Under the pieces are notes generated by a model, which saw nothing but the letters and a program-made list of their open reading frames with translations, was not told the DNA's origin and did not search any database. A program made the position numbers and the translations under genes. From IMG/VR virus record IMGVR_UViG_3300013104_000019, positions 23,474 to 87,473 of that record: a DNA stretch of 64,000 bases, one strand, 5' to 3'. Below, in pieces: positions 53,091-55,267 of the stretch. Numbering within the stretch: position 1 is the stretch's first letter; every line of letters starts with the position of its first letter. The stretch comes from a virus. Taxonomy: Duplodnaviria; Heunggongvirae; Uroviricota; Caudoviricetes.

Positions 53091-53122
53091 TCTTACATTC
53101 GATCAAGGAAATAGATATCATG
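53091..53122 (+). promoter_or_regulatory. leader motif, copy 5 (variant)
   Basis: tcttACATTCGAtcAAGGAAatagatatcATG. Confidence 0.4.
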
Positions 53123-53614
53123 GCAGCTAAGAACCAAAAACAACGTAACTACTTCAACGAATACCTCGAAGCCGCAATGGAACGCGTCAATCGAGCCAAG
53201 TCGAAGTTCTTCGCCCGTCTGACGATGGAATACTTCGAGAACCTCGCGATCGTCACGATCACCGTCGGTGAACGCCAGCAGATGGCGTGCTTCGTCGATG
53301 ACATGCCCGTCTTCACGTACTGGCTCACGAAGGAGCAGCGCACGCCGCTGGTGGCCCGTATGTACAAGCAAGGCATCAGTGGTGTGAAGATCGCGCAGTT
53401 CCTCAAGCTGTCGGCATCGACGATCTACAACGACCTGAAGTACATCCGCGAAGTCTCGCCGTTCAAGATCGAGAACCGCACGATGCTCGCTTCCTACAAG
53501 AACGCGCGCATCATCCCGGAAGGCGAGCTGAAGATCGCTGCGCTGAACTTCCAGGCGCAGATGCTCGACATGAAGTCGGTCTTCGCTGAAGCGCGTAGCG
53601 CAACGATCCAGTAA
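53120..53614 (+). CDS. sigma-factor region-4-like / LuxR-type HTH protein (putative phage transcription factor)
   Basis: LTKEQRTPLVARMYKQGISGVKIAQFLKLSASTIYNDLKYIRE has the ...G.S...IA..L..S..T......R spacing of sigma-70 region 4.2 and LuxR HTHs. Preceded by the ACATTCGA..AAGGAAATAG motif; terminator follows. Confidence 0.5.
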   Translation: MAAKNQKQRNYFNEYLEAAMERVNRAKSKFFARLTMEYFENLAIVTITVGERQQMACFVDDMPVFTYWLTKEQRTPLVARMYKQGISGVKIAQFLKLSASTIYNDLKYIREVSPFKIENRTMLASYKNARIIPEGELKIAALNFQAQMLDMKSVFAEARSATIQ

Positions 53615-53625
53615 GGCAGTATTCG

Positions 53626-53655
53626 CACGGGGGGCTTCGGCTCCCCTGTTCTTAC
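53626..53655 (+). terminator. intrinsic terminator
   Basis: cacggggggcTTCGgctcccctg. Confidence 0.65.
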
Positions 53656-53690
53656 TTAGGGCGACACGCGCCCTTTCTTCGGATAAAGAC

Positions 53691-54776
53691 ATGGTCACGG
53701 TTACGGTATATCCACCACAGGAGCAACCCAAGCAACTCACGGCAAATCACCGCCCTGATAATTTGGAAGAACACATGTTGGCGTTTCTTAATGTCAACAA
53801 CAGCAAAGGGTTTCCTCTCCTTACCACTGAGGAGTCGGACAATCTTGGCAACTTGCTTTACGATTACGTAACACAAAACCAGACGATCAAGAAGAATGAT
53901 GCCTCGCAAATGGCGATGGAGATTCGTCGACGCTCCGGTAAGAAGATCAAGTTCATGAAAGCCTACGAGTTGTTGGCTCGTTGCTTTGGCTATTACTCAT
54001 GGCGCAATGTGCTTGGTGCTGCCAAAGAGAACGGCGAACTGGTCAATCTGAATTACGGCAAGATGACGCTTGCGGACATCTTCCAGTTCGATGCAGATCA
54101 AGAAGAACAACTGTTGGTAGTCAAAGGTGTGAATCATCCGGAGTTTCTCACCTACCAGCGACTTGCGGGTCACAACTGCAAGAACATGCCGGACATGGTC
54201 AATCTCTTTGCGCGACAATGCCGCACTGAAGCACTGGCGATGAATTACGAGATTGCCAGAGAGATTGGACTTAAGCGATGGTTCGGCGTGGAGAACATGG
54301 AAGAACTCATCAGCTGGATAGCAAGACGGCGTTTTCCTCCGGCCTTTAACCTCGACACGTTTGAAGTGAAGGAAGCAAAGCTGCGAGATTATTTGCGCAG
54401 TCCAATCTTCAGGACGCGCGCAAGGCGTGATGACATCATGCATGTGCTAAATGAATGGTGTCAGAGCGATTCAATTTCCGAGTACATCAAGCAGATGCTA
54501 GATCACTTGTGTTGTGGTCGCGATGATCTGCCGTACTTTGCTTTCTTCACGCGACAATACGGCGTCTGCGGGATAGAGTGGAATAGTTCCGGGCAAGATC
54601 AGGGAGAAGCGCACAGTGAGCGCGGTGGAATTGTTCTCTTCACGGAAAATAACAAGATCGCACAAGCGTATCCGATGAAAGAGTTAGATCCGAGAACACG
54701 CGGTGGTTGGATCCATTCAGACCAGCGCTATTATCAACAAGTCAACAAAGAGTTGCAGAAAGCCCGTAAGCGGTAA
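53691..54776 (+). CDS. hypothetical protein (N-terminal domain paralog)
   Basis: 361-aa ORF; terminator follows. Confidence 0.55.
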   Translation: MVTVTVYPPQEQPKQLTANHRPDNLEEHMLAFLNVNNSKGFPLLTTEESDNLGNLLYDYVTQNQTIKKNDASQMAMEIRRRSGKKIKFMKAYELLARCFGYYSWRNVLGAAKENGELVNLNYGKMTLADIFQFDADQEEQLLVVKGVNHPEFLTYQRLAGHNCKNMPDMVNLFARQCRTEALAMNYEIAREIGLKRWFGVENMEELISWIARRRFPPAFNLDTFEVKEAKLRDYLRSPIFRTRARRDDIMHVLNEWCQSDSISEYIKQMLDHLCCGRDDLPYFAFFTRQYGVCGIEWNSSGQDQGEAHSERGGIVLFTENNKIAQAYPMKELDPRTRGGWIHSDQRYYQQVNKELQKARKR

Positions 54777-54783
54777 TTCTCAT

Positions 54784-54812
54784 GGGGGGCGTTTGCTCCC
54801 CGTTTATGCCAT
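54784..54812 (+). terminator. intrinsic terminator with TTTATGCC tail
   Basis: ggggggcgtttgctcccc then gtttatgcc. Confidence 0.65.
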
Positions 54813-54815
54813 TAA

Positions 54816-54838
54816 TTACATTCGAAGGAAAAATCATG
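54816..54838 (+). promoter_or_regulatory. leader motif, copy 6
   Basis: ttACATTCGAAGGAAaaatcATG. Confidence 0.5.
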
Positions 54839-55267
54839 AAAAACAAAGCTACGCATTCGTTCGTTATCGAGCAGTACGTCGAATTGAAGCGCGAAGAAGA
54901 TTTGTTCATCACGGGCTTCTACTATCCGGTTAGCGTCGTTCACGATGAAGCCTCGGCAAAAGCCATCGTCTATAAAGCCGGTTACGTGGATTCGAAGATC
55001 GGTCAGGACGGCTGGATGCCGCTTCTGCGTTGCAGCGAAGTGCCGATCATGCCGAAAGAAGAACCGGTACCTAAACTGGAAGATTTGGGTTTCACCAAAC
55101 GCATCCTCCGCATCTTGGCGGCCGATGGCATCTTCGACTTCAGCCAGTTGCTGATTCATTCGGCCGACGACCTCATCAAAGGCCCGCACTTGGGTGCGAA
55201 GTCTTTGGCAGAAATTCGCACCAAGCTGGCGGAGAAAGGATACCGTCTTCGCGGCGACAAAAAATAA
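54836..55267 (+). CDS. protein with RNA polymerase alpha-subunit C-terminal-domain (alpha-CTD)-like module
   Basis: Trimmed to MKNKATH after TTACATTCGAAGGAAAAATCATG. C-terminus LEDLGFTKRILRILAADGIFDFSQLLIHSADDLIKGPHLGAKSLAEIRTKLAEKG parallels RpoA alpha-CTD [55 protein letters not shown]. Confidence 0.6.
   Translation: MKNKATHSFVIEQYVELKREEDLFITGFYYPVSVVHDEASAKAIVYKAGYVDSKIGQDGWMPLLRCSEVPIMPKEEPVPKLEDLGFTKRILRILAADGIFDFSQLLIHSADDLIKGPHLGAKSLAEIRTKLAEKGYRLRGDKK

Follow-up and report, generated by a model that had tools for sequence, protein, structure and literature searches.

Does a small protein of a tailed phage carry its own copy of the C-terminal domain of the RNA polymerase (RNAP) alpha subunit (alpha-CTD), and what would such a copy be for? 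The question is raised by a locus in IMG/VR virus record IMGVR_UViG_3300013104_000019 (Caudoviricetes), of which positions 23,474 to 87,473, a stretch of 64,000 nucleotides referred to here as the window, were analysed. Positions 53120-55267 of the window hold three genes on one strand, gpA, gpB and gpC. A first-pass annotation had read gpA and gpC as a pair for the takeover of host transcription, made up of a helix-turn-helix (HTH) protein resembling sigma region 4 and an alpha-CTD mimic. The alpha-CTD of gpC proves to be real, and its pairing with gpA is unsupported. We propose, at a probability of about one half, that gpC is an accessory minor-groove DNA-binding or transcription-modulating factor of a phiKZ-like jumbo phage.

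As judged from sequence comparison, gpC is a real gene, with an identical 143-residue protein in the databases (P0001) and further relatives at 84, 84 and 59% identity. Its start codon is preceded at a distance of 5 nt by the ribosome-binding motif AAGGAA, and the relatives begin at the same place. A longer reading frame, starting at 54782, was rejected because the identical protein, the relatives and the ribosome-binding site all favour 54836.

Sequence and predicted structure agree that the C-terminal ∼60 residues of gpC are specifically an alpha-CTD homolog and not a generic helix-hairpin-helix (HhH) domain, which bears out the first-pass annotation on this point. The Pfam family RNA_pol_A_CTD (PF03118) covers residues 80–133 with an E-value of 3.7e-9; the 36.6 bits exceed its gathering score of 23.8, and Pfam shows no match to a different HhH family. 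Every one of the seven gpC family members hits PF03118, the best with 1.5e-14, and none hits a further family. A sequence search of the PDB gives 49 matches, 48 of which are RpoA, as RNAP alpha subunits or as the alpha-CTD alone, with the Thermus alpha-CTD (1doq, 4.6e-6) in first place. The NCBIfam rpoA models align to gpC over their last ∼60 positions only, with 16–36 bits against cut-offs of 228–523. In the AlphaFold2 model (mean pLDDT 83), a check proposed with the annotation, residues 81–133 form a five-helix domain that follows a linker. This domain is compact and helical, contains two HhH motifs and is closest to the solved alpha-CTDs.

The residues on the surface of the domain were compared by aligning the seven family members with the E. 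coli and Thermus alpha-CTDs, using the established residue numbering of E. coli alpha. The DNA-contacting R265 corresponds with Arg89 in gpC and is present in six of the seven members (Val in P0016), and G296 and K298 correspond with Gly120 and Lys122, both invariant in the family. S299 is Ser123, a position occupied by Ser, Thr, Arg or Gly, and N268 is replaced by Arg92, being Asn in the other six. Two further DNA contacts, N294 and E302, correspond with His118 (Asn or His in the family) and Glu126 (six of seven, with Asp in P0026). The 265 determinant (R265, N268, G296, K298, S299) is thus retained in gpC except for N268.

The determinants for activator and sigma contact (261: D258, D259, E261; 287: T285–L289) are not matched in gpC. 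The sigma70-contacting E261 is Gly85, and the CAP-contacting residues E286 and V287 are Ala110 and Asp111; all three positions vary across the family. Glu82 and Asp83 are acidic equivalents of D258 and D259. The pI of the domain is 9.7 in gpC and 8.8–10.1 in six of the seven members, compared with 5.1 for the E. coli alpha-CTD. Relative to the alpha-CTD of RpoA (PF03118; PDB 1COO, 1LB2, 1DOQ, 2MAX), gpC therefore lacks E261, E286 and V287, carries Arg in place of N268, and is basic rather than acidic. Since conservation is seen on the DNA-binding face but not on the faces that contact proteins, a DNA-binding role is favoured over activator-contact mimicry; the first-pass annotation had drawn a parallel with both functions of the module, and only the DNA determinant is kept.

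The remainder of gpC is, on present sequence and model evidence, an orphan domain unrelated to RpoA, as had been suspected. Residues 7–70 are modelled by AlphaFold2 as a beta-beta-alpha-beta-beta-beta domain, conserved in the seven family members and joined to the C-terminal domain by a short, flexible and Pro-rich linker, PIMPKEEPVP. Residues 1–78 match nothing in Pfam, including RNA_pol_L and RNA_pol_A_bac, the dimerisation and assembly domain of RpoA; a seven-sequence profile of the domain gives nothing significant in Pfam or in the PDB (best E 0.58), and a fold search finds no significant relatives. The order of domain, linker and alpha-CTD parallels the tethered alpha-CTD of RpoA, but gpC has no alpha N-terminal domain and so cannot assemble into RNAP in the manner of alpha. 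When 1.84 billion representative proteins are searched exhaustively by profile, both domains occur together in no more than four clusters at 50% identity (P0003, P0015, P0016 and P0026), and the clusters that contain the N-terminal domain all come from jumbo-phage-like metagenomic contigs. In the 196-residue homolog P0026 (L007, 10001-10591) the N terminus is extended, and the extension shares 55% identity with a separate 58-residue gene of another contig (L004, 5077-5253), a relationship that points to gene fusion or fission within the clade.

The alpha-CTD-like domain itself is far more widespread. A profile of the gpC C-terminal domain, run in the same search, matches 1247 representative clusters, many of them cellular proteins with 2–12 tandem alpha-CTD-like repeats; these numbers, the repeats and the fusions to other domains indicate that the fold is a widely reused modular domain. 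Among the cellular proteins are P0020, P0014 and P0013, with 4–12 repeats; P0013 has 11, P0020 has five together with a true Sigma70_r4 domain (50 bits), and in P0014 Sigma70_r4 is near threshold. Such alpha-CTD-repeat proteins are an uncharacterised class of predicted DNA-binding proteins. They have in common with gpC an alpha-CTD-like domain at work away from RNAP, evidently as a module for binding nucleic acids; they differ in that it is arrayed in tandem within large cellular proteins, while gpC has one copy.

Closer in form are about 10 phage proteins of 111–240 residues in BFVD that have been automatically named 'RNA polymerase alpha subunit C-terminal'. Phage proteins with this label include A0A6J5L490 from an uncultured member of the Caudovirales and A0A2P1JY10 from Rhodococcus phage Finch. 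Genes of this kind are also found in GenBank in Bacillus phage Goe8 (c00050; SPO1-like), Ruegeria phage V16 (gp23) and Microbacterium phage Mazun. As in gpC, these orphan proteins are small, combine one PF03118-type domain with an unrelated domain, and are functionally uncharacterised; their alignment with gpC is limited to the C-terminal domain (63–77 columns). The first-pass annotation had held phage alpha-CTD-like proteins to be an uncommonly described mechanism. Labelled examples are thus already present in UniProt and GenBank, but our literature search found no functional study of a phage-encoded alpha-CTD homolog. We conclude that gpC is a new domain architecture, in a phiKZ-like context, within an already annotated and uncharacterised class of orphan alpha-CTD proteins.

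The second half of the supposed pair, gpA, was described as carrying a sigma region 4.2 or LuxR-type HTH. An HTH is indeed predicted, at residues ∼71–112, and the sigma assignment does not hold. In the AlphaFold2 model (pLDDT 72) a helix and then a four-stranded sheet at the N terminus precede the three-helix HTH, which is followed by a long helix at the C terminus. Pfam signals at residues ∼70–115 (HTH_22, HTH_11, HTH_7, HTH_38 and Sigma70_ECF) are all below cut-off, Sigma70_ECF reaching 15.1 bits against 21.1 over residues 74–111 only, and neither Sigma70_r2 nor Sigma70_r4 is matched. The NCBIfam model TIGR02999 gives 13.4 against a cut-off of 126. The resolvase family HTH_7 (PF02796) gives 19.2 bits, below its cut-off of 23.8, and two gpA homologs (P0007 and P0011) carry precomputed PF02796 matches. 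When a nine-sequence gpA profile is compared with the PDB, an archaeal tandem-HTH protein (2lvs) scores 6e-4 and the DNA-binding domain of gamma-delta resolvase 0.19. A Pfam hit to a 'GP68-like RNA polymerase component' was rejected, being below cut-off (E 0.0087) and covering the HTH alone.

The HTH of gpA therefore resembles those of resolvases, sigma region 4 and LuxR about equally. Sigma regions 2 and 3 are absent, and the lack of region 2 means that gpA cannot be classed as a sigma factor; unlike LuxR/GerE proteins it has no receiver or autoinducer domain and no family-level match; unlike resolvases it has no recombinase catalytic domain. Its N-terminal helix and four-stranded sheet are unassigned. 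Eight homologs are known, at 44–90% identity, and gpA is probably a regulator, a clade-conserved HTH protein with predicted DNA binding.

Comparison of related contigs shows that gpA and gpC do not travel together. Orthologs of gpA, within the same identity range, stand on every related contig examined (L001–L008 and L014–L018), where the genes run gp238, gpA, a variable slot, gp103, gp301, gp382; the slot next to gpA is occupied by chimallin, the shell protein of the phage nucleus, in two lineages. gpC is present in five lineages, namely the window, the P0002 contigs, the P0003 contig, L006 and L007. The L006 copy, 41% identical, is located downstream of gpA; the L007 copy, 32% identical, is located on the other side, upstream of both gp238 and gpA. 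It was not found in the sequenced gpA flanks of L001–L005, L014, L015/16, L017/18 or the cultured phage FLC9. The most telling case is L017, in which gpA, gpB and gp103 are 85, 88 and 87% identical to those of the window and gp103 follows directly after gpB. In the window, gpC and its leader ACATTCGAAGGAA fill exactly the space that is bounded by the hairpin-TTTATGCC element behind gpB and by the hairpin ahead of gp103, both of which are common to the two contigs. The absence of gpC between such similar neighbours marks it as a strain-variable accessory cassette; gpA belongs to the core genes of the clade. There is no obligatory link between gpA and gpC. That the two lie close together reflects a variable region which they share and does not speak for a functional unit, and the idea of a functional pair is unsupported.

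The first-pass annotation also placed both genes behind one conserved leader and a terminator after each (Table 1). The leader stands in its exact form before gpC; what precedes gpA is a variant, ACATTCGAtcAAGGAA, that includes the Shine-Dalgarno-like AAGGAA and is also found before the gpA orthologs of L006 and L001. The 13-mer ACATTCGAAGGAA has eight matches in the window at up to 2 mismatches, compared with 1.8 expected, and TTCGAA alone is not notably enriched (62 observed, 46–50 expected). In the general form (AC)ATTCGAAG(GAA) the motif lies just 5' of start codons at 20334, 34084, 50301, 50768, 51746, 53095, 54818, 55309 and 56663, and it is kept at orthologous genes in L006 although the proteins are only 46–66% identical. 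At two of these sites, 55309 and 56663, it stands apart from the Shine-Dalgarno sequence and so must be more than a ribosome-binding site; it could be a 5'-untranslated-region element or an operator.

A terminator-like hairpin does follow gpA. The sequence 3' of gpC folds no better than its shuffles (z −0.25), and the hairpin found there belongs to gp103, which it also precedes in L017 (∼10390-10410), L006, L007, L001 and L004, with or without gpC; it forms the right edge of the gpC insertion and is not a convincing terminator. A GC-rich hairpin running into TTTATGCC recurs through positions 50300-57900 of the window (for example at 54782-54808) and in L001, L004, L006, L007 and L017, and precedes most genes of the region, including chimallin in L001. 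From its sequence this unit resembles a terminator and a promoter placed back to back. Its TATG at 54805-54808 matches the core of the phiKZ late promoter, T-3ATG+1 (PMC7598289). A sigma-70-like promoter upstream of gpA (9/12 matches) was rejected, as such sites occur at chance frequency (8 found, 5.6 expected).

Table 1. Positions of genes, domains and candidate signals in the 64,000-nucleotide window.
Feature	Position	Strand	Remarks
gpA	53120..53614	+	164 aa; from the ORF listing
HTH of gpA (predicted)	53330..53455	+	residues ∼71–112; recognition helix in ...SASTIYNDLKYIRE
gpB	53691..54776	+	361 aa; between gpA and gpC
gpC	54836..55267	+	143 aa
gpC N-terminal domain and linker	54836..55069	+	residues 1–78; AlphaFold2 model; pI 5.3
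gpC alpha-CTD-like double HhH domain, with stop codon	55070..55267	+	residues 79–143; pI 9.7
Leader motif ACATTCGAAGGAA, exact	54818..54830	+	5 nt before the gpC start codon
Leader variant ACATTCGAtcAAGGAA, 3-nt insertion	53095..53110	+	just 5' of the gpA start; pattern scan
Leader motif, also written ACATTCGAAG			5' of start codons in the window
Terminator-like hairpin GGGGGGC-UUCG-GCUCCCC with T-rich tail	53627..53649	+	after gpA; −19.8 kcal/mol
9-bp GC-rich hairpin, running into TTTATGCC	54782..54803	+	after gpB
Hairpin CCCTC-TTCTTCGTAT-GAGGG, TATG in loop	55274..55293	+	upstream region of gp103 (55342..55653)
Thymidylate synthase	5579-6676		Pfam

The window encodes a PhiKZ_MCP capsid protein (Pfam, 2e-13) and a Peptidase_S80 prohead protease (1.3e-10), which together point to a phiKZ-like jumbo phage as its source, and a 964-residue protein that is ∼31% identical to proteins of jumbo phages of 290–370 kb. 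Among 50,697 phage records, nucleotide BLAST with the window found no relative, and protein BLAST with gpC likewise none; scans of IMG/VR and JGI metagenomes for further gpC loci returned only the source phage, a viral contig of ∼245 kb listed as IMGVR_UViG_3300048915_000145 and Ga0157372_10000012. Among cultured relatives, only the Burkholderia jumbo phage FLC9 has a gpA homolog (gp117, 33% identical). Chimallin (PF25677) is encoded two to three genes from the gpA orthologs in L001 and L007. In the 64-kb window neither chimallin, sought by tblastn with the proteins of the relatives, nor an RNAP catalytic motif, sought by a DxDGD scan, was found, and Pfam searches of the large reading frames near the locus gave no chimallin or RNAP. 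For this phage, a chimallin alignment scanned against IMG/VR, a degenerate pattern at the DNA level and a profile of chimallin gave negative or uninformative results; gp107 of FLC9, considered as a candidate, was rejected as not being a chimallin. Jumbo phages of the phiKZ kind use multisubunit RNAPs of their own that lack alpha subunits (PMC7598289), which makes a takeover of host transcription uncertain. In the non-virion RNAP (nvRNAP) of phage AR9 no domain compensates for the missing alpha (PMC9209446).

In the reading that we prefer, an accessory DNA-binding factor, the C-terminal domain of gpC would bind the minor groove and backbone of DNA much as the alpha-CTD of RpoA does, at A/T-rich, UP-like DNA, with contacts through Arg89, Gly120, Lys122 and Ser123 (R265, G296, K298 and S299). 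The N-terminal domain would provide the specific function, either by self-association or by docking on to a partner, and gpC would act as an auxiliary factor, neither a subunit-like component nor a mimic of an activator-contact surface. We infer the DNA binding and its sequence preference, and with them the N-terminal role, a target in host or phage DNA and the timing of expression. The fusion of alpha-CTD-like repeats to Sigma70_r4 in P0020 is consistent with a generic DNA-binding role. Several observations weigh on the other side. HhH domains can also make protein-protein contacts. P0016 has Val at the position of R265, gpC of the window has Arg at that of N268, and the C-terminal domain of P0026 is acidic (pI 5.3). 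The DNA just upstream of the phage TTTATGCC elements consists of GC-rich hairpins and not of A/T-rich, UP-like sequence, so that phage promoters are not evident as a target of gpC. Fold, PDB and Pfam searches, moreover, give no functional clue to the N-terminal domain.

The lack of A/T-rich DNA at the phage promoter-like elements would make host UP elements the more natural target, and gpC could then be a decoy at the level of DNA: a cytoplasmic protein that occupies UP elements or other A/T-rich DNA upstream of host promoters, outcompetes alpha-CTD and lowers UP-dependent (rRNA) transcription. The retained DNA-binding determinant and basic charge are in keeping with this, as is the character of the gene, which is dispensable, varies between strains and has a leader to itself, features common among host-interference genes. 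A single, monomeric alpha-CTD, however, binds DNA weakly without the cooperativity of RNAP or an activator, and oligomerisation through the N-terminal domain would be needed. Phages of the phiKZ kind are also independent of host RNAP (PMC7598289), though host shut-off could still pay. On balance such a decoy appears distinctly unlikely. We consider it improbable that gpC instead supplies an alpha-CTD in trans, its N-terminal domain docking on phage or host RNAP, or on a phage DNA machine, so that the C-terminal domain adds a contact to upstream DNA. This would suit a layout that mirrors RpoA, a phiKZ-like phage whose relatives have chimallin near gpA, and RNAPs that lack alpha (PMC7598289) with no compensation in the AR9 nvRNAP (PMC9209446). 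Close relatives with the same neighbours nevertheless do without gpC, which cannot then be a core polymerase component; no genes for RNAP subunits or chimallin were seen in the window, and the N-terminal domain is unlike any known RNAP-binding fold. Least credible, and very improbable in our view, is mimicry at the level of protein, in which the C-terminal domain would titrate host activators (CAP-like or Spx-like) or sigma region 4, perhaps together with gpA. The true alpha-CTD fold, the acidic Glu82 and Asp83 at the positions of D258 and D259, and the existence of bacterial fusions of alpha-CTD-like repeats with Sigma70_r4 speak for it; the changes of E261 to Gly, E286 to Ala and V287 to Asp, at positions that vary across the family, speak against it, as do the lack of sigma membership of gpA and the failure of gpA and gpC to co-vary.

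Between gpA and gpC lies gpB, which matches no family; PHROGs contains no family for either gpB or gpC. Orthologs of gpB in L015–L017 are 74–88% identical. Its N-terminal ∼35 residues (53691-53810) are paralogous to a segment, within 51805-51920, of the 161-residue reading frame 51805..52290, with the common pattern H.RP..L.EH.LAFLN.NN, a likeness that suggests a targeting or interaction peptide. In IMG/VR and JGI contigs with an identical gpC (L010, 6937; L011, 413), gpB is 96–97% identical to that of the window, reading LNANNNHGF where the window has LNVNNSKGF (near 53772). The difference shows the window to be a close strain variant of those assemblies and not the same sequence.

Elsewhere in the window, a 577-residue reading frame (18523-20256, + strand) combines the YadA_stalk and YadA_anchor domains that characterise trimeric autotransporter adhesins; in a phiKZ-like genome this would be unusual cargo or a co-opted fibre, and it hints at a Gram-negative host. 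The Pfam repertoire also includes NADAR, Macro_2, cpYpsA/SLOG, cyclophilin, a papain-like C1 peptidase, Band_7/SPFH, dCTP deaminase and ThyA, and the ADP-ribose-processing genes among them may counter host defences.

Phages are known to act on the alpha-CTD of their hosts in several ways. The T4 enzymes Alt and ModA ADP-ribosylate R265 of host alpha, and phages also contact alpha-CTD through activators. A Rac protein of the phiKMV type cleaves alpha (PMC7552054). A copy of the domain encoded by a phage is not known to have been studied. The value of gpC in this respect is tempered by the predicted nature of its function, by its dispensability among close relatives and by the commonness of orphan alpha-CTD domains as modular binders. 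Because the AR9 RNAP has no replacement for alpha, gpC nevertheless offers a concrete and testable candidate for a DNA anchor or a UP-element competitor. That it acts as an alpha-CTD in trans, either as a tethered anchor on an alpha-less phage RNAP or as an oligomeric competitor that silences rRNA promoters at host UP elements, we regard as unlikely; if true, either form would be a previously undescribed use by a phage of the interaction between alpha-CTD and the UP element.

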